DNA of 64,000 nucleotides from Candidatus Terrybacteria bacterium RIFCSPHIGHO2_01_FULL_48_17 (GTDB lineage: Bacteria; Patescibacteriota; Minisyncoccia; Terrybacterales; 2-01-FULL-58-14), in the NCBI GenBank assembly GCA_001822835.1, contig MHSS01000004.1, positions 7,186 through 71,185 on the forward strand, read 5' to 3'. Shown piece after piece: positions 4,318 to 63,847 of the stretch (position 1 is its first letter; each line of letters opens with the position of its first letter). Position numbers and translations under genes: made by a program. The notes beneath the pieces are model-generated. The model saw only the letters and a list, made by a program, of their open reading frames with translations, was not told where the DNA came from and ran no database searches.

Positions 4318-4341
4318 GGCCCCGACCGTTTGGTCGGGGCC
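4318..4341 (-). terminator. intrinsic terminator hairpin
   Basis: GGCCCCGACC-GTTT-GGTCGGGGCC just downstream of the 4355 stop. Confidence 0.7.
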
Positions 4342-4354
4342 CTCTATTTAGTTA

Positions 4355-4693
4355 TTAGGCCGTTGGCTTCTGCTTGCCGAGGCGCTCGCCCGTCTGGTGG
4401 AGCACGCAGGCGAGAATCGGCAGCGTGCTGACCTCCCGCGCGCCCTTGTGAGGCACAAAGGAGAAGGGCAGCAGAACGTCAACCAGCACTTCGTCGTCCG
4501 GATACGTGTCACGGACAACGACGATCTTGCCGTCCCGCTTCTCCTTTTGGGGGATGACCACGACGGCCTTGCCGTGGTAATCGCGGAGAGGATACGCTGG
4601 GTCGCGTCCGGCAGCCAGACCCTCCGCAGACATCCGCACTTCGCAGACGTCACCGGCGCGGAACGTTGGGCCGAGGTTGGACATGTGCTTCAC
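4355..4693 (-). CDS. hypothetical protein (high GC)
   Basis: GTG start overlaps the upstream TGA (GTGA coupling), preceded by an SD GAAGGAGGG. Confidence 0.65.
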   Translation of the reverse strand: MKHMSNLGPTFRAGDVCEVRMSAEGLAAGRDPAYPLRDYHGKAVVVIPQKEKRDGKIVVVRDTYPDDEVLVDVLLPFSFVPHKGAREVSTLPILACVLHQTGERLGKQKPTA

Positions 4694-5079
4694 GCCGATC
4701 CCTCCTTCTCGATGTCGATCTCTGCCCCGCACTCGGGACAGGCAATGGGGACATCGCTCTCCGGCGTCCACTCTCCGGCAGCGCACCCGCTTTTGCGGTT
4801 CGCGCACCGCCACCGGGTTAGGGAGCCCCTGCCCTGCCGAACCTTGCCGACGTTGAACTCCGTCGGGAGATGGGCAGTAATGCTCCTCTCCTCCGGCGTG
4901 TGCACGGTGATTTGCACCGCGTTCGCGCCAGCCACGATTGAGGTGACCACCCCATCGACCCTTCGATCCGGAAGCGGCTCCCGCTTCCGTTTCTGGGACT
5001 TGTCGTCCCAGACATGAGCTATGCGGCCGGTCTGGGTGAAATTCACCACGAAACCGACCTCGAGCTGTCCAGCCTTCAT
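4690..5079 (-). CDS. hypothetical protein with C-terminal Zn ribbon (high GC)
   Basis: SD AAGGAGG, consensus promoter upstream, CANRKSGC...CPEC. Confidence 0.75.
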   Translation of the reverse strand: MKAGQLEVGFVVNFTQTGRIAHVWDDKSQKRKREPLPDRRVDGVVTSIVAGANAVQITVHTPEERSITAHLPTEFNVGKVRQGRGSLTRWRCANRKSGCAAGEWTPESDVPIACPECGAEIDIEKEGSA

Positions 5080-5126
5080 CGGATTCCTCCTTTCCTTTAC
5101 GGCTGGTCTGGTAATGTACCTTCTTA

Positions 5127-5155
5127 ATTATAAACCCTTATACAAATATTGTCAA
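5127..5155 (-). promoter_or_regulatory. consensus sigma70 promoter
   Basis: TTGACA-17 nt-TATAAT on the minus strand. Confidence 0.8.
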
Positions 5156-5263
5156 GGTTTGCTGATTTCCCAAAAATACAGTATTTTAAAAGACGGAGCG
5201 CCCCGAACCAGAGCGAAGCACGATTCGGGGCAGCCCTGAACCGAACTTTGTTCTGGTTCATGG

Positions 5264-5336
5264 GCGCCCATAGCTCAATTGGCAGAGCAGCTCCCTCTTA
5301 AGGAGACGGTTTCAGGTTCGACTCCTGATGGGCGCA
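5264..5336 (+). tRNA. tRNA-Lys(CTT), no encoded CCA
   Basis: Acceptor GCGCCCA/TGGGCGC, anticodon loop CTCTTAA, T loop TTCGACT. Confidence 0.95.
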
Positions 5337-6222: not shown

Positions 6223-6870
6223 ATGCGCCCGCTCGGAAAAACCCCAACCCGATGGTCTCCAAAAGTCGCCTACGCCATTGGACTCATTGCAACCGATGGT
6301 TGTCTCTCCAAAGACGGCCGGCATATAGATTTTACTTCGAAAGATAGGGAGCTCGTCGAAACATTCAAACGCTGTCTTGGCGTTACGGCGAAAACCGGCC
6401 GCAAAACAAGTGGCTATAATGGGAAAAAGTATTTCCGTGTACAATTCGGAGATGTATTGTTCTATAAATGGCTGCTGGAAATCGGGCTTATGGCTAAAAA
6501 GTCTACCGTCCTAGAATCGCTTAAGGTACCAGAAAAGTATTTTCCTGATTTTCTCCGAGGAAATTTCGACGGCGATGGAACAATATACGCTTACTGGGAT
6601 TCTCGATGGCGTAGTAGCTACATGTTTTATATAGCCTTTGCGTCAGCAAGCTTACCGTATCTTGAATGGCTGCGCGCATTAACCAAACGACTGATCGGCA
6701 TAAAGGGACGTATTATACCAATGTCGGGCGTATGGGGGCTTCGCTTTGCGAAGCAGGAATCATTGCAATTAATAAGAGTGATGTATTATACTGGCGAGGT
6801 TCCGCATCTTTTAAGAAAGCGCCGAAAGATAGAAAGAATCCTTACAACAAACGGCGTACGTAGCCGATAA
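6223..6870 (+). CDS. free-standing double-motif LAGLIDADG homing endonuclease-like protein
   Basis: AYAIGLIATDGCL and FLRGNFDGDGTI motifs; ends 2 nt before tRNA-Leu. Confidence 0.88.
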   Translation: MRPLGKTPTRWSPKVAYAIGLIATDGCLSKDGRHIDFTSKDRELVETFKRCLGVTAKTGRKTSGYNGKKYFRVQFGDVLFYKWLLEIGLMAKKSTVLESLKVPEKYFPDFLRGNFDGDGTIYAYWDSRWRSSYMFYIAFASASLPYLEWLRALTKRLIGIKGRIIPMSGVWGLRFAKQESLQLIRVMYYTGEVPHLLRKRRKIERILTTNGVRSR

Positions 6871-6872
6871 AT

Positions 6873-12322: not shown

Positions 12323-12396
12323 CCCTAGAAGCGGATCCGCACCGACTTATGTTCCGAACAATACTAAAACAAGTTACCCCGCCTTATGGCGGGGTT

Positions 12397-12825
12397 TTAA
12401 TCAACAAAAGAAATAACTTCTTCGGTTATCTTGATAAGCTTTATAAGTTTTGTGGTCCAGCTTGAGCTTCCGTCCATTTGGGCAAAAACCAGTAGTTTTT
12501 CTCTCGCCTCGGCACGAGCGCCCTCATCCGTTTGCGCACGGAGGTCTTCCGTCCATCTCCGAAGCTCCTGCCCTTTCTTCCAATTGTGGCGCAAGTCGTC
12601 TTCTTTCACATACGACGCAAACTGCGCAACATAACGAAAAGAGAGGTTCTTGAGAGAACACAGGTAAAAATTACACCCAGGATTCTCTACTCCTAACGCA
12701 TCGAGCAGGTCTCCGATTTTACATTCAAGCTCTTCGTTATTGGGAGCATCAATTTCATAGGTATGATTTTCCCACAACCAAGGGGCGGCTTTGGGTTCAT
12801 GCGTAATAATGGCTTCGTACCGCAC
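12397..12825 (-). CDS. hypothetical protein (standalone cassette)
   Basis: TTGACA promoter, SD TAAGGAGG, GTG start, terminator hairpin at 12376-12395. Confidence 0.7.
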   Translation of the reverse strand: MRYEAIITHEPKAAPWLWENHTYEIDAPNNEELECKIGDLLDALGVENPGCNFYLCSLKNLSFRYVAQFASYVKEDDLRHNWKKGQELRRWTEDLRAQTDEGARAEAREKLLVFAQMDGSSSWTTKLIKLIKITEEVISFVD

Positions 12826-12890
12826 GAATTCCTCCTTATTTTCAAATTGCTATCTTTATATTTCTAACACAAAAAGGTTTCGTTGTCAAA

Positions 12891-13845: not shown

Positions 13846-13985
13846 ACGTTTTTCGTTTATGCATCCAATCCGTATATATGCGTCTATTTATATTGTACGA
13901 CATTTCATTGCTATTCAAAACGTTGACTTTTGAACATATCTATGCTATCCTAAAATCAGGTTCATCGAAAGAAAAAGAGGACGAT

Positions 13986-14360
13986 ATGAATTTGTTCGTA
14001 TATGGAACCCTCACGAAGCCGAGGGTGCAACAAAAAGTGCTCGGGCATACAGCGCAATCGCAGCCCGCAATACTTAAGAACCACACCTTCATTCGAACGC
14101 CTGCGAATTTCGGAAATTATCTTATGGCAGTTCGTAGCATGGGTAATCGCGTACACGGACTACTCCTCTCTGGCCTCTCAAAAGAGGATTTCGAAAAGCT
14201 CGACGAGTACGAGGAAATAGATCAGGAAGGGTGTCCGTACCATCGAAAGGACCTTTTGGTGGTTCTGGAAAACGGCGCGACGGTCTGGGCCGCTGTGTAT
14301 GTGGGAGGCGCAAAACCAAGGTCGCGCCCCAAACATAGCCCATTCGATATTGGTCTGTAG
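13986..14360 (+). CDS. gamma-glutamylcyclotransferase (AIG2-like) family protein
   Basis: MNLFVYGTL ... LDEYE ... Y.R ... AAVY; own promoter, SD and terminator. Confidence 0.85.
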   Translation: MNLFVYGTLTKPRVQQKVLGHTAQSQPAILKNHTFIRTPANFGNYLMAVRSMGNRVHGLLLSGLSKEDFEKLDEYEEIDQEGCPYHRKDLLVVLENGATVWAAVYVGGAKPRSRPKHSPFDIGL

Positions 14361-14457
14361 ATCCCCCAAACATGGGGGTTCTCTTCTTTTAATAAAACCT
14401 TATCCCCAATTTCCTTGTTGCCACCCCAATATGGTATACTATCTTTGACTTTTATTT

Positions 14458-15388: not shown

Positions 15389-17608
15389 ATGAGTAATCGG
15401 CTGTATTCATATACGCTCCCGCATGGCGTGGAGCTTCAGATAAGCTTTCCCGGTTACGCCGAACAGGCAAACGCAGAAACGCTTGTCCGGCTTGGCGATA
15501 CCGTTATACTCGTCACCACAGTCATGAAAGATGCCCGCAGTGACGGCGTGGGGTTTTTTCCTTTAACCGTAGAGTTTGAAGAAAAGTTTTATGCAGCAGG
15601 GGAGTTGCGCACGTCCCGGTTCGTAAAAAGAGAAGCCAAGCCATCAGATGAGGCGATTCTTGCTGCCCGCCTTATTGACCGCACCATCCGTCCCCGTTTC
15701 CCAAAGGGCATGCGCAACGAAGTGCAGGTGGTAGCAACGACGCTTTCGTATGACGGCGAGAACGATCCGGATATCCTCGGTATTTTGGGGGCCTCAATTG
15801 CCTTGTCGTGTTCCGATATTCCTTGGCACGGCCCGATTGCGGGCGTGCGAGTAGCAAAGCCCAATGGCACGATTTTGGTAAATCCTACCGTAGCCCAACG
15901 CGCGCAAGCAAAATCAGAAATTGTTATTGCCGGAACGAAAAATCGTATCAATATGATGGAAGCAGGCCTCAACGAACTTTCGCATCAAGAAGCACTTACC
16001 CTTATTGCCGATGGCCACAAAGAGGTACAAAAACTCTGCACATTTATTGAAAACATCGTTAAAGAGCAGGGAAAACCGAAAGTTGCCGCCGATCTCTTTG
16101 AACCACCGCGGGAACTGGTAAAAAACATTAGGGAACGCTTTGGCAAAGAGCTAAAAACAGCGCTTTTTGAAGTACCCGGCAAAGTCGAATCGCAAAGCAA
16201 TTTACGCGAACTTGAAGAACGGGCCATCGAGGAAATAGGGGACGAGCAGACAAGCGCACAACATATCCGCGAAGCATTCGAGAACGAAATCAATCGGGTC
16301 GTACACGAAGAAGCGCTTGAAAATGGACGCCGAGCAGACGGCAGGAAAAAGGATGAGGTGCGCATACTTCGTGCGCAAGCCGGAGTATTGCCGCGCACAC
16401 ACGGATCTTCTGTTTTTGTGCGTGGAACCACGCGCGCACTCGCAACCGTAACGCTTGCTGGGCCGGGTGAGCAGCAGCTTGTAGAAACCATGGAAGGGGA
16501 GTGGAAGAAAAATTTCATGCTTCATTATAATTTCCCGCCGTTTTCAGTAGGGGACATTAAGCCATTTCGCGGCCCGGGACGGCGCGAAATAGGCCATGGC
16601 GCTTTGGCGGAACGCGCTATTTCCCCCCTTATTCCTGACCGCGAGACGTTCCCTTATACTATTCGCGTGGTTTCGGAAATTCTTTCGTCAAACGGATCAT
16701 CATCAATGGCATCGGTCTGCGCCGGAACGCTTTCCCTTATGGACGCCGGCGTGCCTTTGAAAAAACCGGTTGCCGGCATCGCCATGGGGCTGATGATGGA
16801 ACAGGGAACAGGGGACGGGGGACAGGGGACAGGAAAATATCTGGTGTTAACGGATATTCAAGGGCCAGAGGATCATCATGGCGACATGGATTTGAAAGTG
16901 GCCGGCACTAAAGACGGTTTCACGGCTCTACAAATGGACGTAAAAATAGAAGGCGTAACATTGAGCGTAATTGAAGAAACGTTTGCGCAGGCACGAAACG
17001 CAATCGACCACATTTTAAAAACGATTACCGATGTTTTGCCGGCACCCCGGCCGTCGGTTGGACCATATGCGCCGAAGGTCCTTGTGCTTAAAATTAACCC
17101 GGATCGCATCCGAGATGTCATCGGTCCTGGCGGCCGCGTGATCAATACCATCATTGAAGAAACGGGTGCTACGATTGACGTTGAACAAGATGGCACTGTG
17201 TATGTTACGTCAATCGATGAGGCGGCCGCGCAAAAAGCGCTTGCATGGGTCAGAAACCTCACCCGCGAAATTATGCCGGGGGAAGAATTTGAAGGAAAAG
17301 TATCACGCATATTTCCGTTTGGCGTGATGCTGGAAATCATGCCGGACAAAGAAGGCCTTATACACGTTTCTGCCCTTGAGCGGTTTAGCATTAGGCACCC
17401 CGGGGATGCCTTTAAGCCCGGACAGGTCGTTCCTGTAGTAGTAAAGGAGATTGACGATCAAGGAAGAGTAAACCTGGCATTAAAGGAAGGATACCAGCCA
17501 GAGGTACAAAGCAGCGGATTTTCCCGTCCGCCGCTCCCTCCTCGTCCGCACCACGGAGGCCCGCGAAGAGGTTTTGGTGGGAATCGTCAGTCCCGAGATC
17601 GTTATTGA
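15389..17608 (+). CDS. pnp: polynucleotide phosphorylase
   Basis: RLIDRTIRP, RREIGHGALAERA, SNGSSSMAS, GDMDLKVAGT, KH and S1 domains; heptamer-derived insertion at 16801-16835. Confidence 0.98.
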   Translation: MSNRLYSYTLPHGVELQISFPGYAEQANAETLVRLGDTVILVTTVMKDARSDGVGFFPLTVEFEEKFYAAGELRTSRFVKREAKPSDEAILAARLIDRTIRPRFPKGMRNEVQVVATTLSYDGENDPDILGILGASIALSCSDIPWHGPIAGVRVAKPNGTILVNPTVAQRAQAKSEIVIAGTKNRINMMEAGLNELSHQEALTLIADGHKEVQKLCTFIENIVKEQGKPKVAADLFEPPRELVKNIRERFGKELKTALFEVPGKVESQSNLRELEERAIEEIGDEQTSAQHIREAFENEINRVVHEEALENGRRADGRKKDEVRILRAQAGVLPRTHGSSVFVRGTTRALATVTLAGPGEQQLVETMEGEWKKNFMLHYNFPPFSVGDIKPFRGPGRREIGHGALAERAISPLIPDRETFPYTIRVVSEILSSNGSSSMASVCAGTLSLMDAGVPLKKPVAGIAMGLMMEQGTGDGGQGTGKYLVLTDIQGPEDHHGDMDLKVAGTKDGFTALQMDVKIEGVTLSVIEETFAQARNAIDHILKTITDVLPAPRPSVGPYAPKVLVLKINPDRIRDVIGPGGRVINTIIEETGATIDVEQDGTVYVTSIDEAAAQKALAWVRNLTREIMPGEEFEGKVSRIFPFGVMLEIMPDKEGLIHVSALERFSIRHPGDAFKPGQVVPVVVKEIDDQGRVNLALKEGYQPEVQSSGFSRPPLPPRPHHGGPRRGFGGNRQSRDRY

Positions 17609-17671
17609 CAGAGGAACTACGGACTGTTATTCTAACCAAAGATTTACAATAAACAAAAGGGGGAGAGCGCA

Positions 17672-18136
17672 ATGGCGCTGATAGTGATACTTGGCGGCGG
17701 GGTCTTTCTTTTCTTTCTTCTGTGGGCAATTGTAGCAAGGGAGACCGAGTGGCTTCTGGCGGCGCTAATGTTTGGCATTATTGCTGCATTGTTCGGGGTG
17801 GCATTCGCTACAGTTGCAAACCAAATACAGCCGCCGCCATACGAACCCTGTGGCGAAGTACAAATTGAGCTAAAGGACAACAAAGCCGCATATGTGGTGC
17901 GTGGTCGTTACGACAACGTATTTGTACGCTTTTGGACAAAATACGGATATTTTGTCGAACCCCACGAAGTGGTCGCAAGCCACGTCGAGATCCACGAAGA
18001 GAACAGAAACGATGCTGTGGCGGAACGGTATTGCCGTGACCGCATCCGATGGTTTGCGCTAGATTGGTCAGACGACAAATACAAATTGCTCGTACCCGAG
18101 GGCTCGGTGGTTACTTCACCGGACCTTTTACGGTAA
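17672..18136 (+). CDS. hypothetical membrane protein (standalone cassette)
   Basis: Two N-terminal TMs, TTGACA-17-TATTCT, SD GGGGAG, terminator at 18141-18160. Confidence 0.75.
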   Translation: MALIVILGGGVFLFFLLWAIVARETEWLLAALMFGIIAALFGVAFATVANQIQPPPYEPCGEVQIELKDNKAAYVVRGRYDNVFVRFWTKYGYFVEPHEVVASHVEIHEENRNDAVAERYCRDRIRWFALDWSDDKYKLLVPEGSVVTSPDLLR

Positions 18137-18196
18137 ACAATGGGGCTGCATGGCAGCCCTATTTTTCTTGCCCCAAAAAAGTGGTATAATAATTCT

Positions 18197-19498
18197 ATGG
18201 CCCAAAATAATCGAAACGACGAAGATATATTGACTGCAGGCCAAGCAAGGCCTGATGAAAAGCGTATTCGCACAATGCAGGAGGACCTGGAGCGTGCCAA
18301 GGAACACGTACTCCCTGATCTGCCCTTAGCCACGCCACCCTTACCCAAACAACCTTCAAGACCTGAAACGCCTGTGATTTCGGAAGAATCCCCAGCACCC
18401 ATAGAGTTGCCCATTGTAGGCGAAGAAACGAAACCGGAGGCCGTGCCTCCCGCACCTCCTGAACCTCCACAAACGCCCCCACTCCCGCAAGCAACCGAAT
18501 CGCTTCCAGAAGAAATTTCAGCAGAAGATATTCTCTCGGCGGTCACCGAACCACCGCAACAAAAAGAAACACCAACAACGGGATTTTCTCCTGAAGAACG
18601 CCTTAGTTACTCGCAGGAAGAAAGCGATAAGAAAACCGTAGCGCCTTCGGTACCAGAACTTCCCGTGTTAACTCCCGAAGAAATGCTCTCATTTGGCGAG
18701 GAGGCATTGCCCCAAGCAAAAACAGGAGGCAGATTTTCTGGTATCGCACAAAAACTCCCCATGAAAATGGTCGCAATCGGCCTTGGTGTTTTATTGGTTA
18801 TGGGGGGCCTCGGTATTGTTGGTTACAGCTTCTTTTTTGCAGGCGGGGAAGAGCCGCCACAGCCAGAGCCAACCGCCCCCACACAACCCCCTATTACCGG
18901 ACCTATCGGCTCTCCAGAAGAACCTCCGGTTCCTGAAGCCGTTCTTACCGTTCAAGACACCACCCCGCTTATCGCAAACGACCAGCGCGCCCTAAGCTCA
19001 ACTGCGCGCCGCGTCTATGGCCTCCAGGTTCCCGACCGCGCCGTACACCGCGCATTGGTAAAGCTTGATACGTCCACCGAAAAGCGATATTTGAGTGTTT
19101 CCGAAATCATGGAACAGCTTGGGGCACCTCTTGCCCCAAATCTTGCACGGTATCTTGTAGAATCTGAATCAACGTTTTTCGTATACAGTGAAAACGGGAC
19201 CGTACGCATCGGCTTTGCGGTCCGCACATCCGATGCCGCGGCCCTTCGTGCCGAACTATCCTCTTGGGAAGCCAATGCCGAACAAGAACTTGCAAGCGCA
19301 TTAGAGGCGCTCGGGAAAACGCAAAGCGCCGCAACGCCCCGCTTTCAGGACAACACCCACAACGGCACCCCTATTCGTTTCCTTAACTTTCCTGATCCCA
19401 ACCTTACGATTGATTATGCGGTAGTAGAAAGCAAAAATCTTTTCATTCTGACGACATCTCGCGGCAGCATGTTTGCAGCAATTGATGCGCTACCATAA
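18197..19498 (+). CDS. bitopic membrane protein with Pro/Glu-rich N-terminus
   Basis: RTMQEDL motif, disordered region, single TM, C-terminal globular domain; extended -10 lies 6 nt before ATG. Confidence 0.8.
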   Translation: MAQNNRNDEDILTAGQARPDEKRIRTMQEDLERAKEHVLPDLPLATPPLPKQPSRPETPVISEESPAPIELPIVGEETKPEAVPPAPPEPPQTPPLPQATESLPEEISAEDILSAVTEPPQQKETPTTGFSPEERLSYSQEESDKKTVAPSVPELPVLTPEEMLSFGEEALPQAKTGGRFSGIAQKLPMKMVAIGLGVLLVMGGLGIVGYSFFFAGGEEPPQPEPTAPTQPPITGPIGSPEEPPVPEAVLTVQDTTPLIANDQRALSSTARRVYGLQVPDRAVHRALVKLDTSTEKRYLSVSEIMEQLGAPLAPNLARYLVESESTFFVYSENGTVRIGFAVRTSDAAALRAELSSWEANAEQELASALEALGKTQSAATPRFQDNTHNGTPIRFLNFPDPNLTIDYAVVESKNLFILTTSRGSMFAAIDALP

Positions 19499-19647
19499 AT
19501 GAAGGATGGGGGATAGAATGCAAACAATGAGTATGAGATCGAACAAAAACGGCATATGCTATTTTTGTTTATAGGTTGTGAATAGCATGGTAAATTCTGT
19601 GGATAAGTTGTTATTGACCTCTACGGCGCCTCGCGGGATAATAAAAT

Positions 19648-19850
19648 TAGTCCTTTCAACCAACACCCTTTTTCATGCGCTGGCTAACCCCGCGCTCTGG
19701 GTGTAATCCTTTAGCTGGCACCTTTTAACCAAAAAATCCCAATTTCGGGACCCATACGACGCGGGGCGTCATGATAACCCGACCCACAAGCAGGCCGATT
19801 CGGCCCATTCTATAACAATATAGGGGCGTCTGATCGGCCTCTTTTCTTTT
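19648..19850 (+). ncRNA. candidate structured ncRNA
   Basis: TTGACC-17-GATAAT promoter, nested pairings TCATG/CATGA, CCCCGCG/CGCGGGG and TGGGT/ACCCA, final AGGCCGAT/ATCGGCCT stem + U tract; no SD-led ORF. Confidence 0.5.
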
Positions 19851-20042
19851 TCTCACAACGAGTATCCGAGCTGATGAGAAAAAAGAACCCTGAACCGCGT
19901 TGAAGGGTTACCTTTTACACTTAGCGACGCCTGGTGTCACTGCATTTGTGCAAACAAGCTTGCGGTTTTTCACAAAATCCGCTATCGTTAACGCACGCAC
20001 TTTTGATTTATAAAGGGCTGATCAACGCTGGAGGTAAATGTA

Positions 20043-20402
20043 ATGAAAATATTCTTGATATGTCCGGTACGAGGAATTACGGAAGAAGAAAAAAACGTCA
20101 TCGAACAGTATGTTTTGAATTTGGAAGAGGCCGGCCATACAGTACACTGGCCTCCGCGCGATACCGACCAAAATGATTCTGTGGGATTGCGGATCTGTCA
20201 AGACAACCGCAAGGCGCTTGAAGAAGCGGAGGAAATTCATATTTGGTACAACGAAACATCGCAGGGCTCGCTTTTTGATCTTGGTATGGCGTTCGCCCTA
20301 AGAAAAAAGGTTGTCCTGATTAATCGGAAACGGGCCCGACGAACCCCTCACAAAAGCTTTATCAATGTACTCCTCGCCATCAATAGGACAAAACGCTATT
20401 AA
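20043..20402 (+). CDS. nucleoside 2-deoxyribosyltransferase-like protein
   Basis: MKIFLICPV start, SQGSLFDLGMAFALRKKV motif; SD GGAGGT; terminator at 20406-20422. Confidence 0.75.
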   Translation: MKIFLICPVRGITEEEKNVIEQYVLNLEEAGHTVHWPPRDTDQNDSVGLRICQDNRKALEEAEEIHIWYNETSQGSLFDLGMAFALRKKVVLINRKRARRTPHKSFINVLLAINRTKRY

Positions 20403-20501
20403 ACCGCCGCCCCTCGGGCGGCTTTGCTCTTATTGTGACTGCGAATCAAGAAATTGTTCTCATTGTTGCAAAATAAAGAAACATGTGCTTGAAAGTGTAG
20501 G

Positions 20502-22078: not shown

Positions 22079-22138
22079 AATATAAAAAGCCAGCGGTGAA
22101 ACTGGCGTTAGTTATTGCGAGAGCGTGAGACCTATTGC

Positions 22139-22351
22139 TTATTCTCTGAAAGAATGAACGCTAAGCCGGTCTTGGTCGCGGCGACGCATGCTTTCAATAA
22201 TCTCTTTGCCGCGTATTCCTTCCTGAAGCTGCAGGAACTCGCCATGCGTAATCCAATGACATTTATTGCCAACGCATCGCAAGTAAAGCATCGGCGGCAT
22301 AACGCTTCCCGTAATTTCTTGCATCCGCGCCTGACACAACGGGCATTGCAT
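22139..22351 (-). CDS. small Zn-ribbon hypothetical protein (70 aa)
   Basis: MQCPLC...CVGNKC; SD CAGGAG; own promoter and terminator. Confidence 0.7.
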   Translation of the reverse strand: MQCPLCQARMQEITGSVMPPMLYLRCVGNKCHWITHGEFLQLQEGIRGKEIIESMRRRDQDRLSVHSFRE

Positions 22352-22499
22352 TTCAATTCTCCTGTCGCGGACTCTTTGACGCTCTAGCGCCGTTTTCAAT
22401 CTTCTAATCCTAGAATAGCACATACCAATAAAAAAGCAATGGTTCGACAAAAAAAGAAACACCGCCCAGAAGAAATCGTGGGGCGGTGTAAAAATGCGA

Positions 22500-22898
22500 T
22501 CATGTTTTGTGAATCGTGTGGTAACCTTCGTGCAACAAAACGAGCCATTTGATATGATCCGGCAATTCCTGCCAAACCAGGGTATTGATACAAATTATGA
22601 ATAGATAAGGAACACCCCAAAAGTACGGGAAATACGTATGCACATGAATGGGCCCCGCGCGAGTTCCATCGATGCCCGCCCCTCCAACCAGAAAGGGAAG
22701 ATAGAGCGCTCTGCCAAGACGGGTTTGGAGTTCGCACGAAAGCGCAGCAAGATCAAAACCCGCCATATGAAAGATTCTCGCAGCATACCAATCCGCTTCC
22801 CATTCAGCAGGATTTTCGGAATGGGGAACGTCTGCAAAATACCGGGGCGAGCAGTCGCCGAGAAATTGAATAGCCAAAGGAAGTTTAGGTAGTATCAA
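22500..22898 (-). CDS. small zincin-like (HExxH) protein with unusual motif order
   Basis: EWEADWYAA near the N-terminus, LLHEGYH at the C-terminus; TTG start; own promoter and terminator. Confidence 0.6.
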   Translation of the reverse strand: MILPKLPLAIQFLGDCSPRYFADVPHSENPAEWEADWYAARIFHMAGFDLAALSCELQTRLGRALYLPFLVGGAGIDGTRAGPIHVHTYFPYFWGVPYLFIICINTLVWQELPDHIKWLVLLHEGYHTIHKT

Positions 22899-23042
22899 CT
22901 CTATTGCCTCATTTCTTAAAGATCAATTACGATAAAAGTAATATACCACATTTGTACCAAAAAGCAATGCCTTAAATTCTTACCACAAATCCCCGTATAG
23001 ACGGGGCTTCTGTACCCTATACCCTAAACTCTGTTACCCGAA

Positions 23043-26190: not shown

Positions 26191-28560
26191 ATGGTATCAT
26201 CACGCACTACGGCTATTGTATTAACAGGGGCGACGCTCGTCGTAGTGGTTTTCTTTTTCTTTTTCTCCCCCCGAACTTACACAGCAACGGCGACCGGAAC
26301 CCCCACGGGCCAATCCTTAACAACCGGAAACCCCTTGCTCGACACGGAACACTTCTTGCGTTCGACAATGTTTTCGGGGCTGCTTCCAAAAATTAACGAG
26401 CCGCATCGTGGCACATTCGGTGTCTCGCTCGGGGTTGAGCTTGGAGAAGATTGCGGCGGTGGAACGGAAACAACAGAAGGTGTTGGTCCTGTGTTTGATG
26501 GCGTTTCAGGCTGTAACGCCTGCCAACAAATTGCGCAATGTATCGGCAGTAAAACAGGCCACCAAGACCCCGCGTATCTATGGGATTCAACCACACAAAT
26601 CTGCGGCGTTGGCATCGAAACAGATGGGAGTACGGCAAATAGCTGTAAAGCGGGCGACGCATGCCTTGGAGTACCTATAATAGGTGGCTTCGACAGAGTA
26701 AAAGACGATGCAATAGCCATGGTGCTGAATGCAGAAACGCTTTTCCCCCGAAGTGCCGCCCCAGCAAAACTCTTACTCGCTTACACCTATGCGGTAAGCA
26801 AATGGAATCCTTTTGAAGGAGAGGGGCTTTATCCAACTGATCTGTGTGCTGCAGATAAAACGGCGTTGGAAGGATCAACTTTGTGCGGAGATCCGTTCGT
26901 AGACGGCGAGACAAAAACAATGGACATAGATGGCGACCTGGTAGCGGACGGCAAAGCGTGTCTTGCAATGCCGATTTCCAAAGATCCTGACGGCGCTGGC
27001 GCCCTATGCGGCGGGCGAATTGGAATTTCGCAAGTGCTTCCCACCATTTACGAAACCAACGGATTTCTTATCGGAACACTTACCGGAGATCCTCACCCAA
27101 ACCCGTGGAGCCAGCGCGACGGCCTCGGCGTTGCCGAATCACTCTTATCACTCAACGCATCGCTTTTTGATGAACCAACGTGTAACGCCGCGTGCGTTGC
27201 CGGGGGAAGGAGTATCGATACGTGCCTTACAGTATGCGCAACCGAAAAGGAGCGTTGTGCCATTCTTGACTCATTTTATGGGCCAGGTACCTGTCTTGCG
27301 CCGACGGCCGAACAAAAAATATTCGCCGATACAGTACAGCAATTTGAACCCGTTATGGAAAGCTTGCTCACCACGGGCGCATGTCCTGGCGCGGGAAGCT
27401 GTCAAGATATTCCCGGCTTCGACCGCTTCAATGAACTACGCGCCCTTGTTGACGAAATGGTACCTAAAGTAAAAACGCTATACGGATATGTAGTACGTCC
27501 CGAATACGTCCTTGCGGTTATGAAAATCGAATCGGGATGGAACCCCACGCTTAACCCCCTCCTGCGGTACTACTATACTCACAGCCCATTTACGGGCGGA
27601 CTGCTCTTAGGACAACTTCCGGCTTTCCAGGAGATATGTTCGGACCCAACCACAAGGGCTGAGGTTGAAGCGCAATACGGGGTTGAATTCGGAAAATGCG
27701 AAGATATGCCGGTATCTTCGGCCGGGGCAATGGGAATTGCCCAAGCCATGCCAACTACTTGGAGGGGCGTATTGCAACAAACCAATAACTTAAAGGATCT
27801 TACGGGAGACAATTATGATAATCCCTGGAACGACAGGCACGCAGTTGCTTTCGCAACATATTTCCTCGGCCAAAAGGTGGACGGCTGCGGCAGCGAAGAA
27901 AAAGCATCAGGCGCTTATTATTCCGTTGGCTGCACCGCACCCAATGAACATTACGAACGGGTAAAAACCGTTCTTCCTCTCATCGAAGACCTGTACGCCC
28001 AGGCGTGTTCTGTGCCCGGAGGAGATGGCTGTCCTCTCGTTATGCCGCCGTTTCCGCCAACGCCACCCACAACCGGCTGCTTACAACTCACCAGCGATTT
28101 CTGTCCCGCTGGCGGCTGTTTCTGTTATGCGGGAATTCACGAAGGCGTGGACATCGTAGGCGTTCGGGGGGAGCAGATCTATGCGCCGTTTGACGGAAGC
28201 GTTATAGATGTGATCGATGGTTGTATAGAAGGCGATGGAACATGCGGCGGAGGATGGGGAAACCACCTTGTGGTCAAACAGGACGCCACAAACTTCCATA
28301 TACTTTACGCGCACCTACAAGATATTCTGGTGCTTCCGGGAGAACACGTTACAAAAGGAAGGGTGCTTGGGCACGTGGACAATACCGGCCGTTCGGGTGG
28401 CGACCACCTCCATTTTGAAGTTAATACGAACGCAAATCCGCGAACTGACGACGTAGGCAAAGACGATCCAAGAAAATACTTTACCTGTATTCCTAAAGAG
28501 CCGACGTGTAAAGATTCCACCAAAGATGAATTTTGTCCGCCGACTGGAGAAACAAAATAA
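26191..28560 (+). CDS. Cys-rich membrane-anchored protein with two lytic-transglycosylase-like domains and an M23 domain
   Basis: KIES...GAMGIAQAMPTTW...NPW; an earlier degenerate copy; HEGVD, YAHL, HLHFEV. Confidence 0.82.
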   Translation: MVSSRTTAIVLTGATLVVVVFFFFFSPRTYTATATGTPTGQSLTTGNPLLDTEHFLRSTMFSGLLPKINEPHRGTFGVSLGVELGEDCGGGTETTEGVGPVFDGVSGCNACQQIAQCIGSKTGHQDPAYLWDSTTQICGVGIETDGSTANSCKAGDACLGVPIIGGFDRVKDDAIAMVLNAETLFPRSAAPAKLLLAYTYAVSKWNPFEGEGLYPTDLCAADKTALEGSTLCGDPFVDGETKTMDIDGDLVADGKACLAMPISKDPDGAGALCGGRIGISQVLPTIYETNGFLIGTLTGDPHPNPWSQRDGLGVAESLLSLNASLFDEPTCNAACVAGGRSIDTCLTVCATEKERCAILDSFYGPGTCLAPTAEQKIFADTVQQFEPVMESLLTTGACPGAGSCQDIPGFDRFNELRALVDEMVPKVKTLYGYVVRPEYVLAVMKIESGWNPTLNPLLRYYYTHSPFTGGLLLGQLPAFQEICSDPTTRAEVEAQYGVEFGKCEDMPVSSAGAMGIAQAMPTTWRGVLQQTNNLKDLTGDNYDNPWNDRHAVAFATYFLGQKVDGCGSEEKASGAYYSVGCTAPNEHYERVKTVLPLIEDLYAQACSVPGGDGCPLVMPPFPPTPPTTGCLQLTSDFCPAGGCFCYAGIHEGVDIVGVRGEQIYAPFDGSVIDVIDGCIEGDGTCGGGWGNHLVVKQDATNFHILYAHLQDILVLPGEHVTKGRVLGHVDNTGRSGGDHLHFEVNTNANPRTDDVGKDDPRKYFTCIPKEPTCKDSTKDEFCPPTGETK

Positions 28561-28565
28561 AATAT

Positions 28566-30476: not shown

Positions 30477-30480
30477 AAAC

Positions 30481-31413: not shown

Positions 31414-31418
31414 AACAC

Positions 31419-37407: not shown

Positions 37408-37860
37408 TTGAGTGTGCAAGTCAAAGTTCCCAAATTCATTGATATTGAAGATAAAGTTATTTTTGGCTTAACCTGGCGCCAATTTTTATTCTTGGGCGTA
37501 GGTGGCGGAGTCGGCATTGTTGCGTTCTATGTTTTAGTACAACCCTTAGGAACAGCAATCGGTGTTGTTTCTATGACCATTGGTGCAATCTTTGCGTTAG
37601 TCAAAATAAACAACCGCCCCATGCATATATTTGTATATTCATTGTGGAACTATTTTTTTAACCCACGCCAATACACATGGAAAAAAGAAGCGACCGCGGC
37701 AAGGACAGCGAAAGTGACCAAAATCACAAAAAAGGAGACGCCGGCAACTCCCAAAACCATAACTCCGGAACGACTAAAACGCCTTTCGGTATTGCTAGAT
37801 ATCCAAGGACAAAAACAATCTGATGCCAATGTCAAAGTCCAAAGCTCAAATGCCAAATAA
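37408..37860 (+). CDS. PrgI family (VirB3-like) membrane protein
   Basis: VPKFIDIEDKVIFGLTWRQF, two TMs, NRP...PRQYTWKK. Confidence 0.88.
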   Translation: MSVQVKVPKFIDIEDKVIFGLTWRQFLFLGVGGGVGIVAFYVLVQPLGTAIGVVSMTIGAIFALVKINNRPMHIFVYSLWNYFFNPRQYTWKKEATAARTAKVTKITKKETPATPKTITPERLKRLSVLLDIQGQKQSDANVKVQSSNAK

Positions 37861-37970
37861 AACCCAAAATCCCAAGCTCAAATACCAAAACCCGTGCGTT
37901 TTTATGCTTTGGATTTTCGTCATTGATTTGTCATTTGGATTTTGAAATTTGGATTTAGTAGCCGTTGCTT

Positions 37971-38633
37971 ATGCCTCAAGTATCCACCCAATCGTTTCTT
38001 CAGTTTGAGTTCGTCCGTGAAGGCGCGATTGTCCTTCGGGGCGGAGGACTGCGTGCAATTTTAATGGTGTCGGGATCAAATTTCGGCCTGAAATCCCAGG
38101 AAGAGCAAGAGGCAACGGTATATGCATTTCAGAATTTCCTCAATTCTCTTGATTTTGACATCCAAATAACCATACATTCGCGTAAAATTGATATCGAACC
38201 CTATCTTGCAACGCTTGGAGAACGTCTTGAACGGGCAGAGACCGATCTTTTGCGCGTGCAGACGCGCGAATATATCGAGTTTATCCGTTCTTTTGTTGAA
38301 GGCGCAAACATTATGGCAAAGCAGTTTTTTGTCATAGTGCCATACGACCCGGTAACCGGCACCAAAGAAAGGGGAGTTGTAGCAAAAGCAAGGGCACTGC
38401 TTCCTGTTTCAAAAAAAGAAACGGTTTTAGAGGAAGAAAATTTTGAAACAAATCGCAAACAGCTTATGGAGCGCGTTGAGTTTACGGTTCAGGGCCTGCA
38501 TAAAACCGGTCTTCGCTCAACCGCGCTCTCAACGGAAGAGATTATAGAACTTCTGTGGAAGCTTTATAATCCGGAAAAGGAAGCAAAGGGACAAATGCCA
38601 AATTTTGAAGAACTTGGTGCGGCTTCGGACTAA
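37971..38633 (+). CDS. VirB4/TraC N-terminal-like accessory protein
   Basis: NFGLKSQEEQ...FQNFLNSLDFDIQI...FFVIVPY; lies between PrgI and VirB4. Confidence 0.78.
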   Translation: MPQVSTQSFLQFEFVREGAIVLRGGGLRAILMVSGSNFGLKSQEEQEATVYAFQNFLNSLDFDIQITIHSRKIDIEPYLATLGERLERAETDLLRVQTREYIEFIRSFVEGANIMAKQFFVIVPYDPVTGTKERGVVAKARALLPVSKKETVLEEENFETNRKQLMERVEFTVQGLHKTGLRSTALSTEEIIELLWKLYNPEKEAKGQMPNFEELGAASD

Positions 38634-38711
38634 CCTGCACAATAAGTTTCTATGAGTTTCGCCGAGCAAATATCTATAAATTTCTGAAACTAATGGATTG
38701 AAATTGATTGT

Positions 38712-40493: not shown

Positions 40494-40497
40494 CACT

Positions 40498-40824
40498 ATG
40501 AACGAAGAGGAGTATACTGGAAACGAAGAGGAGGAAGAGCTTACACAACGCCAAGCGCTCGCTCAAGAGCGCGGCGACGCACAAACAGCAGGGCACTATT
40601 TAAAACAACAAGCGCAACAACAGGCAGTGCGCGCTGGAATGCAAATGGCAAAACAAGTGGTAAGACGTGTTGTGGTACAAGCGGCAATTCGAGGCATCAT
40701 CATACTGCTTACCAATCCTGTCGCGCTAGTTATAGAAGGCGTTATTTTGCTTATCATTATCGTGGTTCTTATCGTAATATACGGCGGATTCTATATCCAA
40801 GAAGGGGCCTCCCAAATTTTATGA
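40498..40824 (+). CDS. small membrane protein
   Basis: Acidic N-terminus, C-terminal TM; ATGA overlap with the next gene. Confidence 0.75.
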   Translation: MNEEEYTGNEEEEELTQRQALAQERGDAQTAGHYLKQQAQQQAVRAGMQMAKQVVRRVVVQAAIRGIIILLTNPVALVIEGVILLIIIVVLIVIYGGFYIQEGASQIL

Positions 40825-41906
40825 AGAGGAAAATCTCCTATAGTTATCACAGGCTACTGCTTTGGTGTATAGGCGCTTTTATGGCAATGGCGATTCTTCC
40901 CTTTGTCGCCAACGCTATGTTGCCTGCAGACGGCGGTCTTGGTGGCGTGGGAGCCCCGGGTCAAAGTCAAAACATCAGCAGCCCTCGTCCGAAACTCGAA
41001 GAGGGTCTTGAGCTTCCTCTCCCCGGCGCCCCTGATTTTTCAACCGGCGATCCTGCTGACATTATCGGCTGGTTCTTTTTCTTTACGATGGGCATAGTCG
41101 GGATCCTGGCGCTTATTATGTTGGTTGTCGGGGGAGTGCAATTCACCGCTTCTGCCATTGATCCCGAAGCACGAACCCAAGCACGTAATCGGATACGAGC
41201 AGCCCTTACCGGCCTTTTGCTTGCACTCGTTTCATTTGTGCTTCTCTATACGCTCAATCCAGATCTTGTCAATTTGCGTAGCCCCTCGCTTCCGTGTGTT
41301 TCGTGTGCTTGCCTTGATAGCACGCGAGCGGCTCCCGGACTGAATGTAAATAATTGCGTACAATCAGATCAAGCGGCCTATAGTACGGGCATCCGTGAAA
41401 CAGGAGCGTTTAATACCGACCCCTGTTTGACCTCTGCGATCGCAAGTATTGATCCTAATAGATTAAAGCTCTTGGACGACGCCGGACGCACAGCCGAATA
41501 CGCGAGGGCGTCGGCTGCAAAGGGATGCGGATTTGTTTTTATTGCGGACGATGACAAAACCAATACCACGTGTGCGGCCTATTGCATGCAGAAAAAGGCA
41601 GATAGTTGTGACTATCGCAACGAGCCGGGGTGTAGTTGTAAATCAATCTATGAGCAAACAAAAAACTGGGCATGCAAAACCATGGGTCTCAATACCGTAT
41701 GCAATGAAGAAAAAGACAGCCCCGATGATTCCCAACTTTTCGGATGCCCGCTCCTTGGTTCGTATGTCGAATACGCGACAAATCTCGGCGGAGATTACGA
41801 TGCCTGTAAGTGCGCATCTACAGTAACATGTGCGGATGACGAGGTTATCTCGCTCGTGAAGGATACATTTAAGGAATTGCCGGGCTGGGCGGGTGGCTGC
41901 AACTAA
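40821..41906 (+). CDS. VirB2/TrbC-like pilin with Cys-rich C-terminal extension
   Basis: LVVGGVQFTAS..P.....AR.RI..AL.GLLLAL.SFVLLYTLNPDL pilin pattern. Confidence 0.8.
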   Translation: MKRKISYSYHRLLLWCIGAFMAMAILPFVANAMLPADGGLGGVGAPGQSQNISSPRPKLEEGLELPLPGAPDFSTGDPADIIGWFFFFTMGIVGILALIMLVVGGVQFTASAIDPEARTQARNRIRAALTGLLLALVSFVLLYTLNPDLVNLRSPSLPCVSCACLDSTRAAPGLNVNNCVQSDQAAYSTGIRETGAFNTDPCLTSAIASIDPNRLKLLDDAGRTAEYARASAAKGCGFVFIADDDKTNTTCAAYCMQKKADSCDYRNEPGCSCKSIYEQTKNWACKTMGLNTVCNEEKDSPDDSQLFGCPLLGSYVEYATNLGGDYDACKCASTVTCADDEVISLVKDTFKELPGWAGGCN

Positions 41907-54645: not shown

Positions 54646-54777
54646 TTATTCCTCGTTTCCGAAATCTTCTTCCTCTTCCTCGTCGTCGACATCTTCTTCA
54701 GGCACATCAGCGGTTTCGCTTTGGTCGTCTTTTTGTGACGTGACCACAAATCGTTTAAGTAAAGCATCTGAGGCCAT
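54646..54777 (-). CDS. 43-aa highly acidic microprotein (not in the ORF track)
   Basis: MASDALLKRFVVTSQKDDQSETADVPEEDVDDEEEEEDFGNEE; SD AAGGAGGTGA; terminator directly downstream. Confidence 0.75.
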   Translation of the reverse strand: MASDALLKRFVVTSQKDDQSETADVPEEDVDDEEEEEDFGNEE

Positions 54778-54956
54778 AAAATTCACCTCCTTTTCAAAAG
54801 TTCCCCCATATGGATCGCGGGGGCACCTAGATTAGATAAATGATATTTTCTACTACCTATTATTGCCGTGCTTCTATATTGCCAAACAAAAAGGCGTGGT
54901 CAAAGGATAGATCTGGGGATAAGCCCAAATTGTTTATTGGGAGCACACGGATCGTT

Positions 54957-61746: not shown

Positions 61747-61936
61747 TAGTTCTATTGTACCATATTAGACGCGGACGTACGCTGACTAAACGCTGACTTA
61801 CGCGGAATCTCACACCCACACATGATAGTAGTTTACCGTAGCGCAGGATGTGGTGAGCGTCAATCGTTTCTTGACGAATTAACCGGTTTTTGTTATCCTC
61901 ATCGTGGCAGTTTGACAATAGGAAAAGGAAAAAAAG

Positions 61937-62290
61937 ATGACGCTTTTTGAGTTGATCGAAAAGAAGTTGAGGTTTGCTTCTGTTAATACCGAGTCATGGG
62001 CGGATGTAGAAAGAGTTATCATCTGGTCTGTGCCGCATAAGCCCCGATTGGATTTTTATCACCATATGGCTCCGCGTGCCGTTACGCCCGGAGAAGCAAA
62101 GCACTTATTTAAAAACGTAACCATTAATGGGGCCTCCTCGGGAGATGACACCCTCCCTGATTTTACGGTTATCACGAAACGATTCGTGGTCTTTGTTGAT
62201 CATCGTCAGCATTCTGCGCCGAGCACATATATCGGTCCGCGCCGTACGCATGACGTACTCACAGCAGCTCCGCGTCAGCCAATACTATAA
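61937..62290 (+). CDS. hypothetical protein (standalone cassette)
   Basis: TTGACG-17-TATCCT, SD AAGGA, terminator at 62292-62317. Confidence 0.7.
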   Translation: MTLFELIEKKLRFASVNTESWADVERVIIWSVPHKPRLDFYHHMAPRAVTPGEAKHLFKNVTINGASSGDDTLPDFTVITKRFVVFVDHRQHSAPSTYIGPRRTHDVLTAAPRQPIL

Positions 62291-62340
62291 TCCGCCCCCA
62301 AAAGGCGGCATTTTTTTGGATCTAAGATACAATAGAGGCA

Positions 62341-62835
62341 ATGGTGACGAAAAACGATAACGAATTGGTTGCGCTTGGAAAAAAGACAGGAGAAGCCCTG
62401 CGCCAACAAAAAAACGGTCCCCTGGTTCTTGCTTTGGTAGGGGAGCTGGGTTCCGGCAAAACCACATTTGTGCGCGGGCTTGCGAAGGGCCTTGGTATTC
62501 GTGCGCGCATTACCTCGCCAACGTTTGTGCTGGCGAAACGGTATCGTGTGCCCGCGATAAGAAACAAGAAACAAGAAACAAGAAACAAACAAGATACAAG
62601 ATACAAAAAACAAGAAACAAACCGGCAATACTTTTGGCACATGGACGCGTATCGGCTAAAAGATGGGCGTGACCTTGCGGGCATTGATTTTGAGGAAATA
62701 GTAAGCGACTCCGCAAATATTGTTGCCATTGAATGGGCAAACAAAATAAAACGCGCGATTCCGAAAGGCGCGCGCTGGATTCGTTTTTTCCATTTACCCG
62801 GCAATCGCCGCAAAATAATTTTTTCGATGGAATAA
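62341..62835 (+). CDS. tsaE: t6A biosynthesis ATPase TsaE
   Basis: GELGSGKTTF, TSPTF, HMDAYRL, AIEW; carries a ~21-aa repeat-derived insertion. Confidence 0.95.
   Translation: MVTKNDNELVALGKKTGEALRQQKNGPLVLALVGELGSGKTTFVRGLAKGLGIRARITSPTFVLAKRYRVPAIRNKKQETRNKQDTRYKKQETNRQYFWHMDAYRLKDGRDLAGIDFEEIVSDSANIVAIEWANKIKRAIPKGARWIRFFHLPGNRRKIIFSME
62557..62620 (+). repeat. (ACAAGAA)-type heptamer array inside tsaE
   Basis: About nine units encoding IRNKKQETRNKQDTRYKKQETN. Confidence 0.92.
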
Positions 62836-62968
62836 AAAAGAGGGAATATGAAATAAGGAGTAAGGATTCCGCGGCTGTCAGCGGAGAATTCACGAAACTT
62901 GCTTTTTCGGAGATGGGGTGATAAGCTCTGAATGAAGGAAATTGAAAAAAGAAGAGAGAGGAAGAAAT

Positions 62969-63556
62969 ATGGCCCATTCTGTTTCTGCAGCACTTTGCTT
63001 TCCAGAATACGTAGCCTTATTTCAGGATGCTTTGCAGGCTGGCGAGAAAGATCGGGTTGCGACCGTAATAACCATTTACGCGCGTCATATTGCCGATGCG
63101 GTGCGCAATGACCGCGCAGAAAACCCCGTGAAGGCGTGGGAAGAACTCATGCAATTAAGCAAGGATTTGTTTGAAATGCACACGATTGCCAATCGGCTCA
63201 TTCTGTCCCGCAAGAACGTGCCCGATAGCGCGTTGGTCCATGAAGCAAGCGGTAGCATGCGAGCATTGCGCATGCTTTGTGGAGAATATATGCTGACCGT
63301 GATTCCTTCCGCCGTTCTTGATGAAGCAAGAAAGTACCGTACGATCCTCCTTGGTCTTCAAGGCGTCAATGATAAATGGTTAGATGAACTGCCGTCATTG
63401 TCCGGGTTTTCATCTGCGGAAACAAAATCCGCAGTTCATGCATTGAACCGTTACGGGTTTATTCAGATGACTAATTTTGGGAAAAAGCGCGGCAAGAGCC
63501 GTTTCGCAGTATCGCTTCTTCCCTTAGGGGAGGATGCCATAAAGTACACGCAATAG
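62969..63556 (+). CDS. hypothetical protein, possible C-terminal winged helix (standalone cassette)
   Basis: TTGCTT-17-TAAGCT, SD GAGG, terminator at 63568-63589; LSGFS..ET..AV..L...GFI...SL.PLG pattern. Confidence 0.7.
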   Translation: MAHSVSAALCFPEYVALFQDALQAGEKDRVATVITIYARHIADAVRNDRAENPVKAWEELMQLSKDLFEMHTIANRLILSRKNVPDSALVHEASGSMRALRMLCGEYMLTVIPSAVLDEARKYRTILLGLQGVNDKWLDELPSLSGFSSAETKSAVHALNRYGFIQMTNFGKKRGKSRFAVSLLPLGEDAIKYTQ

Positions 63557-63847
63557 TTTCCGTAATCAAACCGCCCTCGTGGGCGGTTTCCTTTTTCTTT
63601 CCCTCTTCCTCCATTTTTGCTCAAAGCGAAGAACGCAAGAATATGTCATGATGAAAAATAAGCAGCACGAGGGATGCGACGAGAAAAGTTCAATCTCTTT
63701 TCTTTTTCCTTTCCTCTCTCTGTCAGCAAGATATGTCATAATAAGAAGCGAGCAGCAGGAAAGAGCGCGAGGGGCGGGACGCCGAGCGGCCTTAAGGAAC
63801 GGAAGGATCCCTTGCAGACGCGAGGCGGCCTGCCCGAGCGCTTTGCT

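Follow-up and report, generated by a model that had tools for sequence, protein, structure and literature searches.

boxA-like elements and Shine–Dalgarno sequences in the leaders of accessory genes of a Candidatus Terrybacteria genome

Approximately 50 accessory genes of Candidatus Terrybacteria bacterium RIFCSPHIGHO2_01_FULL_48_17, a member of the Patescibacteriota, share a leader in which an element matching the ribosomal RNA (rRNA) boxA lies beside a Shine–Dalgarno (SD) sequence (matrix matches; 10 genes by a strict pattern). An earlier note on a stretch of 64,000 nucleotides from this genome (contig MHSS01000004.1, positions 7,186 to 71,185; hereafter the window, with its own numbering) had picked out nine genes as self-contained, moron-like modules slotted between core genes, each with a promoter, a boxA-like motif, an SD and a terminator, possibly under the control of Nus factors and possibly mobilised as units. 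The leader anatomy is real and genome-wide, and we read it, tentatively, as the mark of an accessory regulon gated by NusB–S10.

The leader and its likeness to the rRNA boxA

The 16S gene is absent from the assembly of this genome (label G000; 865 kb in 16 contigs, 98.7% complete), so its own rRNA operon boxA and its own anti-SD are unreadable and the 16S regions of relatives were substituted. These were fetched for 20 relatives and gave 18 usable leaders, all of which (18/18) share one 12-mer, GNNC(T/A/C)TT(G/A)A(A/C)AA, in a de novo search. With a matrix built solely from these 18 rRNA leaders, the suspected match between the accessory motif and the boxA of the lineage was borne out. Among G000 genes with an upstream gap of at least 60 nucleotides, 42 of 90 SD-led leaders reached the box threshold of 7 bits versus 18 of 344 SD-less ones (P = 1.4e-19), with 39 weak-SD genes (11 box matches) kept outside the comparison. 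SD strength was scored as the energy of the duplex with a 9-nucleotide anti-SD; gene models came from a simple open reading frame (ORF) caller (approximately 880 genes in G000), for which reason some starts are wrong. Matches in the SD-led leaders are strand-specific (42 on the sense strand, nine on the reverse strand and approximately seven in shuffles), and the excess over AT-matched leaders is present in all four AT bins. Given an A-rich 3′ half, G1 was found in 32 and C4 in 25 of 67 SD leaders versus 10 of 51 each in SD-less leaders; on this enrichment and the AT bins, we rejected the idea that the motif merely reflects AT bias or a run of A ahead of the SD. The G and C (G2 and C5 in E. 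coli) are NusB contact positions (PMC3177189), and the NusB-binding consensus of B. subtilis is nearly identical to the relatives' 12-mer (PMC13753749). Genome-wide, 34 of 51 boxes have both G1 and C4.

The box mostly starts 6–13 nucleotides past the predicted −10 in G000, and in 40 of 51 cases it ends −1 to 8 nucleotides before the SD. Such tight spacing after the −10, together with an rRNA box that also lies approximately 10 nucleotides after the −10 in several relatives, would suit a signal in the DNA close to +1 (an operator, or an element of the initial transcribed sequence) common to rRNA and accessory promoters. In other relatives, however, the rRNA box is far downstream of the promoter, and some mRNA boxes follow long leaders yet remain next to the SD. 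Only one of 46 upstream regions of tRNA and tmRNA genes has a box, and the positions enriched are those contacted by NusB, all of which makes a DNA element a very unlikely general explanation.

G000 has two start grammars, with SD-less core genes on one side and SD-led accessory genes on the other. The complete relative G021 has a match to just one of 46 genes that combine box and SD, compared with 267 of 587 genes lacking both signals. When the comparison is confined to accessory genes, a box is present in 37 of 69 with an SD versus 13 of 153 without. A U stands at position −1 of 95 of 132 core starts, compared with 14 of 62 starts of SD-led accessory genes. The observation that core genes in the window mostly lack an SD holds, with one of 25 genes that have a homologue in G021 reaching a duplex energy of −6. 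Most box-plus-SD genes (40/50) are monocistronic and the remainder (10/50) head an operon. In SD-led genes of G000, GC content at third codon positions is slightly higher (0.49 against 0.45), and in G021 it is the same as in core genes; on these near-equal values a recent foreign origin by composition was rejected. A strict box–SD–ATG pattern gave 261 matches versus 32 in backwards controls across 41 genomes, and 815 versus approximately 238 phylum-wide (301 genomes); the control totals are hand-summed, and the backwards control does not separate enrichment of the box from that of SD–ATG. Strict-pattern counts differ widely between genomes. In G013, represented by 140 kb only, box matches numbered two of nine versus 1.1 in shuffles.

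A Pfam survey of 110 SD-led genes, from the 20 richest of 36 regions, yielded many isolated enzymes, including pyruvate dehydrogenase (PDH) E1, citrate synthase, acyl-CoA dehydrogenase, IMPDH, OMP decarboxylase, NAPRTase and NAD kinase, along with PhoH, PrkA–SpoVR, ThyX, and HAD, HD and NUDIX hydrolases. Second copies of ClpP and FtsH are among the SD-led genes of G000, while those of G021 include ThyA, DHFR, dCMP deaminase and an additional, complete sigma-70-family gene that has a promoter and SD of its own (L060:18204-19235).

Very strong SDs also occur without a box. In G000 these belong to rpsU (G000:C14:2961-3206, L114), rpsA (G000:C1:38525) and HU (G000:C2:130512), as well as two pilin-like genes and two tiny acidic ORFs. 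SD-based autoregulation of rpsU is known from Bacteroidetes, and the box-less leaders of rpsU, rpsA and HU recall that form of control. The SD-less HU leaders (L116, L118, L123, L124, L131, L132, L136, L137, L140, L143 and L144) share an AGGTCG-containing motif 20–45 nucleotides upstream of the start, which is rare in G000 and G021 leaders overall.

NusB–S10 as the candidate reader of the box

NusB was found in 40 of 41 genomes, S10 in all five and SuhB-like proteins in four of five, while Rho was found in none of the 41. Given the lack of Rho, antitermination, the known role of the rRNA boxA to which the earlier note pointed, is unsupported for the cell itself. Our preferred explanation, to which we assign a rough probability of 0.45, is a NusB–S10-gated accessory regulon that would resemble suhB control and be far larger. 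Accessory genes have a complete sigma-70 promoter followed by a boxA, where the mRNA is predicted to begin, and then directly by an SD; the cell's own NusB–S10 is predicted to bind these boxes and, once bound, would hold down the translation of accessory mRNAs as a group, as at E. coli suhB. The pool of NusB–S10 left free by rRNA transcription would then be the switch, linking accessory metabolic and stress genes to growth state, and the signals were probably fitted to the genes after their arrival. That the box acts as RNA, that NusB–S10 binds it, that binding represses and that the free pool is the switch are steps we infer from sequence.

The closest parallel is suhB and other gamma-proteobacterial mRNAs (Baniulyte et al. 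2017, PMC5725501). The boxA of suhB is 6 nucleotides away from the SD, and its repression of translation does not depend on Rho, which acts afterwards; gamma-proteobacterial genomes have 0–7 exact-consensus mRNA boxA sites each. The position of boxA a few nucleotides upstream of the SD is shared with G000, as is the presence of NusB, S10 and SuhB-like proteins. The gamma-proteobacterial cases mainly concern Nus autoregulation and Rho-dependent termination, however, whereas here there are approximately 50 accessory targets and no Rho. No box-plus-SD leader was found at nusB or at the two SuhB-like genes of G000, nor a conserved box before rpsJ in five genomes, so autoregulation of the gamma-proteobacterial type is missing at these genes. 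Compared with boxA of rRNA leaders, where it works with NusB–S10, NusA, NusG and SuhB (PMC13753749, PMC3177189), the mRNA boxes share the 12-mer of the relatives' rRNA leaders; they differ in being on short mRNAs beside an SD, in being more degenerate and in having no Rho to antagonise. We conclude that the likeness to mRNA boxA control is real and extends over the class as a whole, and that the units are not a moron family. A literature search found no report of boxA–SD leaders or SD-led accessory genes in Patescibacteria, although the supplements of PMC9297842 and PMC5725501, which like most subscription papers lay outside its coverage, may bear on this.

A number of observations weigh against a NusB–S10-gated regulon, beginning with the lack of a box-plus-SD leader at nusB and the SuhB-like genes and of a conserved box before rpsJ. 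About half of the SD-led genes in G000 have no box, and in G021 only eight of 42 have one. Seventeen of the 51 boxes genome-wide lack G1 or C4; in the window, C4 is missing from four of eight named boxes, and four of the nine are weak. Where the box is within approximately 7 nucleotides of +1 it could be a DNA element, with which the strand bias is compatible. Lastly, this reading leaves unexplained why SDs persist in genomes whose 16S lacks an anti-SD. In one of these, G021, strong SDs precede 40 of 290 accessory versus seven of 298 core genes. All six carriers of the box-plus-SD gene prkA that lack an anti-SD keep an SD at −10 to −12, scored as the best among the first three starts, which favours SDs; and the median SD–ATG excess is 25 in 11 genomes without an anti-SD versus 18 in 13 with one, kin being counted as separate genomes.

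The nine units in the window and their origin

All six motifs that had been given coordinates are present in the window, and the two weaker ones sit in the leaders of genes 5079 and 20043. Each of the nine genes has its own −35/−10 promoter with a 16–17-nucleotide spacer, extended by TG in seven (the exceptions being 5079 and 20043), and the best box begins 4–15 nucleotides past the −10. The SD attributed to every gene is strong in six (−7.4 to −12.2 kcal/mol) and weak in three (13986, 22898 and 61937; −5.6 to −5.8). A GC hairpin followed by a T-rich stretch lies directly 3′ of eight genes, five satisfying a strict rule and three read from fold output. The shared motif is at least 7 bits in five leaders (12825, 22351, 22898, 61937 and 62969) and below this in four (5079, 13986, 17672 and 20043), and per-leader shuffles with the rRNA-derived matrix gave p ≤ 0.04 in four of nine. 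Most of the proteins are orphans, and all but that of 20043 (8/9) had no match in 1.8 Mb of relatives' loci. 'ORFan' is nevertheless too strong a label for the set, since 13986 encodes a GGACT-family protein and 20043 has a weak nucleoside-deoxyribosyltransferase match with 675 database homologues. The description as self-contained modules, with own promoter, boxA-like element, SD and usually a terminator, stands; single-gene is not the rule, as the operon-heading genes noted above show.

Unit 1 (4318–5155, minus strand) has a −35 at 5155, a −10 at 5132–5127, a weak box at 5119–5108 (3.9 bits) and a strong SD before an orphan ORF of 129 amino acids (5079–4690); a second ORF, ending at 4355, intervenes before the GC-rich terminator hairpin (4341–4318), so this is not a single-gene unit. 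Unit 2 (12376–12889, minus strand), flanked by a GH63-like gene and the gene for the xer recombinase, has a promoter, a box at 12850–12839 (10.5 bits, no C4), a strong SD, a 142-residue orphan ORF with a GTG start (12825–12397) and a terminator. Between xer and rpsO is unit 3 (13923–14378, plus strand), where a promoter, a box at 13960–13971 (5.9 bits, G1 and C4) and a weak SD precede the 124-residue GGACT-family ORF (13986–14360) and a terminator. Unit 4 (17605–18163, plus strand), behind pnp, has a promoter, a weak box at 17638–17649 (4.6 bits), a strong SD, a membrane-anchored ORF of 154 residues with a weak phrog_8077 match (17672–18136) and a terminator, and unit 5 (19960–20422, plus strand), before comM, a promoter, a weak box at 19997–20008 (2.1 bits, G1 and C4), a strong SD, the 119-residue nucleoside-deoxyribosyltransferase-like ORF (20043–20402) and a terminator.

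Units 6 and 7 are on the minus strand. The first (22089–22439) comprises a promoter, a box at 22404–22393 (13.1 bits, no C4), an SD, a Cys-rich orphan ORF of 70 residues (22351–22139) and a hairpin; the second (22459–22967) a promoter, a box at 22924–22913 (9.8 bits, G1 and C4), a weak SD, an orphan ORF of 132 residues with a TTG start (22898–22500) and a terminator-like hairpin. On the plus strand, unit 8 (61871–62308) lies between pilB and tsaE, with a promoter, a box at 61907–61918 (11.1 bits, no C4), a weak SD, a 117-residue orphan ORF (61937–62290) and a hairpin, and unit 9 (62899–63589) between tsaE and polA, with a promoter, a box at 62937–62948 (7.5 bits, no C4), an SD, a 195-residue orphan ORF (62969–63556) and a terminator. 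A further leader, outside the original nine, serves a 43-residue acidic ORF (54777–54646; 54646–54803 in all, minus strand); its SD is very strong (−12.9), and its box (54803–54792, 11.5 bits) comes behind a longer hairpin leader. Elsewhere in the window, 19498–19950 is an ORF-free, GC-hairpin-rich intergenic stretch of 450 nucleotides before unit 5, a possible non-coding RNA without an Rfam match, and a LAGLIDADG-like ORF (6223–6870) ends three bases before a tRNA-Leu. An Rfam scan of the window found three tRNAs and nothing else. Across G000, ARAGORN listed a tRNA-Ile with anticodon TAT and a tRNA-Arg with GCG, and no tRNA-Asn.

The slots between core genes were empty in the relatives examined, as had been supposed. 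Most of the 20 stretches from relatives contain a xer–rpsO–NYN–pnp backbone, in many cases together with comM and M23. The six accessory genes of this region were absent from all of these stretches, where other SD-led genes fill some of the gaps. pilB and tsaE are adjacent in three of five relatives (G001, G002 and G003), tsaE and polA in four of five (G002, G003, G013 and G016). The alternative that the window genes are syntenic core genes in relatives therefore fails, and the reported lack of att sites and target duplications was confirmed: the longest flanking repeats are 5–8 nucleotides, within the range of shuffles for all nine units.

That the units are mobilised as such is not supported, given the lack of flanking repeats and of any long shared leader sequence, and given the 20043 family, which adjoins ndk in 10 of 18 relatives. 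This family is present in 19 of 220 relatives and occurs in DPANN archaea and phages, its tree (a quick method) being poorly resolved. Its patescibacterial copies have a promoter in 18 of 29, an SD in 22, a box in seven (shuffle 2.3) and a terminator in eight, whereas among 60 viral copies these numbers are five, 42, six (shuffle 3.6) and zero. prkA in G000, outside the window, has 27 homologues in the 220 relatives at 26–37% identity; an SD is present in 26 of 27 by the scoring described above and a box in 16 of 27 (shuffle 2), versus none of eight outside homologues. A FastTree phylogeny with only these eight outside sequences, for which phage and plasmid homologues were sought with a single protein query, forces at least four label changes, and the boxed G102 and G153 copies lie among proteobacterial and phage sequences. 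Since prkA was gained several times and the box is common in relatives and lacking outside, the box was likely added after acquisition of this gene, and more than once. Signals imported with the gene are not what we see, the box being at chance in the viral 20043 homologues and absent from the outside prkA leaders.

Phage morons and auxiliary metabolic genes are self-contained promoter–gene–terminator units between conserved genes. The window units resemble them in their self-containment, with own promoter and terminator and absence at the same site in relatives, and in an overlapping functional repertoire; they differ in being chromosomal, dispersed, old residents without phage context, and phage homologues lack the box. 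Insertion as moron-like mobile cassettes by a recombinase, or derivation from phages together with the signals, would account for the empty slots, the mostly monocistronic organisation, the phage homologues and the two units that flank xer. However, xer is itself syntenic core beside rpsO in most relative loci, viral 20043 homologues rarely have their own promoter, and the units showed no prophage setting, no att sites or target duplications, and no sequence common to their ends. This explanation is largely refuted and, in our view, hardly tenable. In the families tested, the accessory units are old, patchy residents and not a family of mobile elements. A shared mobile leader module was also rejected: duplicated genes and one pair at contig starts are the only ones to share leaders. 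In that pair (G000:C4:12-141 and G000:C12:17-146), leaders of approximately 120 nucleotides on SD-led genes are 82% identical while the proteins do not match. Palindromic repeat families of 25–35 nucleotides are dispersed in intergenic regions (G000:C2:125077-125102, with copies on C5, C8, C9, C13, C15 and C16).

Shine–Dalgarno sequences, their readers and the biology of the units

Among the 112 relatives in which the end of the 16S could be read, 53 lack the anti-SD (counted by hand), in line with its detection in 48% of Parcubacteria (Tsurumaki et al. 2022, PMC9297842). The accessible text of that paper expects no SD helix in such genomes and does not mention SD-led genes, leaderless genes or boxA. 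Bacteroidetes, with SD-blind translation and a sequestered anti-SD (PMC7797042), offer a partial parallel, as most genes here are SD-less though close relatives keep the anti-SD, and the rpsU SD is strong here too; they differ from G000, where over 100 genes have an SD that goes with accessory status and boxA, and from the many relatives in which no anti-SD is left at all. The ribosome of G000 can probably read an SD, because HU, rpsA and rpsU have strong SDs and the three closest relatives keep the anti-SD. In HU leaders (30 loci, one partial and those of unknown status left out), a strong SD is found in six of 11 genomes with an anti-SD versus none of seven without, and rpsA has no SD in G021. 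Yet G021 contains 36 GGAGG sites 4–9 nucleotides before a start, and a TGA extension pairing with the universal 16S tail in four of 39 versus a background of 1.9%. CsrA was rejected as an alternative reader of the SD, being found in none of five genomes. In a further genome without an anti-SD, a box–SD–ATG leader lies approximately 230 nucleotides behind the 16S end (L047, G028:C11:99620-99660).

The persistence of SDs without an anti-SD makes translation in the host a candidate reading. The dispersed genes might be written for another cell, with unit mRNA or DNA delivered to the host by a relaxase-less type IV secretion system (T4SS) and the SD read by the host ribosome. The box could let the epibiont's NusB–S10 silence the mRNA or tag it for export, or could protect transcripts made in the host against the Rho of that cell. 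As with auxiliary metabolic genes of phages, the encoded proteins would redirect the metabolism of the host. Such a scheme is consistent with the canonical spacing and TGA extension of SDs in G021, with SDs of the cell's own machinery following the anti-SD, and with the lack of CsrA and Rho. A −35 is commoner in SD-led than in leaderless promoters (11/16 versus 14/67 in G021; 14/27 versus 12/44 in G000). The gene content also fits, being made up of stand-alone enzymes and additional copies (PDH E1, citrate synthase, IMPDH, NAPRTase, NAD kinase, PhoH, PrkA–SpoVR, HD hydrolase, extra ClpP and FtsH; ThyA, DHFR, dCMP deaminase and a second sigma-70 in G021), as does the occurrence of the 20043 and prkA families in phages. 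The window contains a T4SS-like cluster (26191–41906; M23/SLT, VirB6-like, PrgI, VirB4-like and pilin genes) approximately 6 kb from dnaA, which fits the described patescibacterial T4SS, a type without relaxase and with unassigned cargo, for which co-option to a function other than conjugation has been suggested (PMC12102498).

Several observations speak against host translation. The genes showed neither an export signal nor an oriT, and neither a link to a relaxase nor clustering; a literature search showed no report of nucleic-acid delivery by Patescibacteria. The SD of the 20043 family is weak or lost in family f20, which lacks the anti-SD (−3.3 to −6.6, 4/4), though kept in G104 and G088. 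In G021, U at −1 is about equally frequent in SD-led and core genes (23/43 versus 62/123), as if the former were tuned to its own initiation, and the box is rare there. Cultured Minisyncoccia parasitise methanogenic archaea (PMC13293708); as control archaea lack NusB and Rho, only the mRNA route would fit such hosts. In addition, 28 of 84 SD-led accessory proteins look membrane-bound, and the kin behind the genome counts are not independent. Overall, we consider host translation unlikely.

Alternatively, box and SD could be ordinary expression or stability signals of anti-SD-bearing Patescibacteria, passed among competent relatives with the genes they lead, with relic SDs decaying and no common switch. 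The patchy distribution of the two families (19 and 27 of 220 relatives), the erosion of the 20043 SD in f20, the SD-led genes without a box and the competence-related comM and pilB of the window all agree with such passive carry-over. However, SD counts are not lower in genomes without an anti-SD, the divergent f20 prkA leaders all keep a strong SD (5/5), and in two genomes without an anti-SD the box-plus-SD pattern counts are 15 versus 1 (G033) and 11 versus 1 (G035). We regard carry-over as distinctly unlikely.

If the NusB–S10-gated regulon is correct, NusB–S10 would gate dozens of mRNAs in a phylum without Rho, far exceeding the few targets known per genome, and mRNA gating may explain why NusB is retained in minimal genomes. 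The leader sorts core from accessory genes by sequence alone, in genomes that are mostly unannotated. Canonical SDs kept without an anti-SD raise the question of which ribosome reads them, and one answer would bear on the cargo of the patescibacterial T4SS and on why isolated pieces of pathways are kept. Were the genes written for the host, the parasite would be taking over host metabolism in the manner of a phage, and its effector genes could be recognised in sequence alone by the grammar of their leaders.

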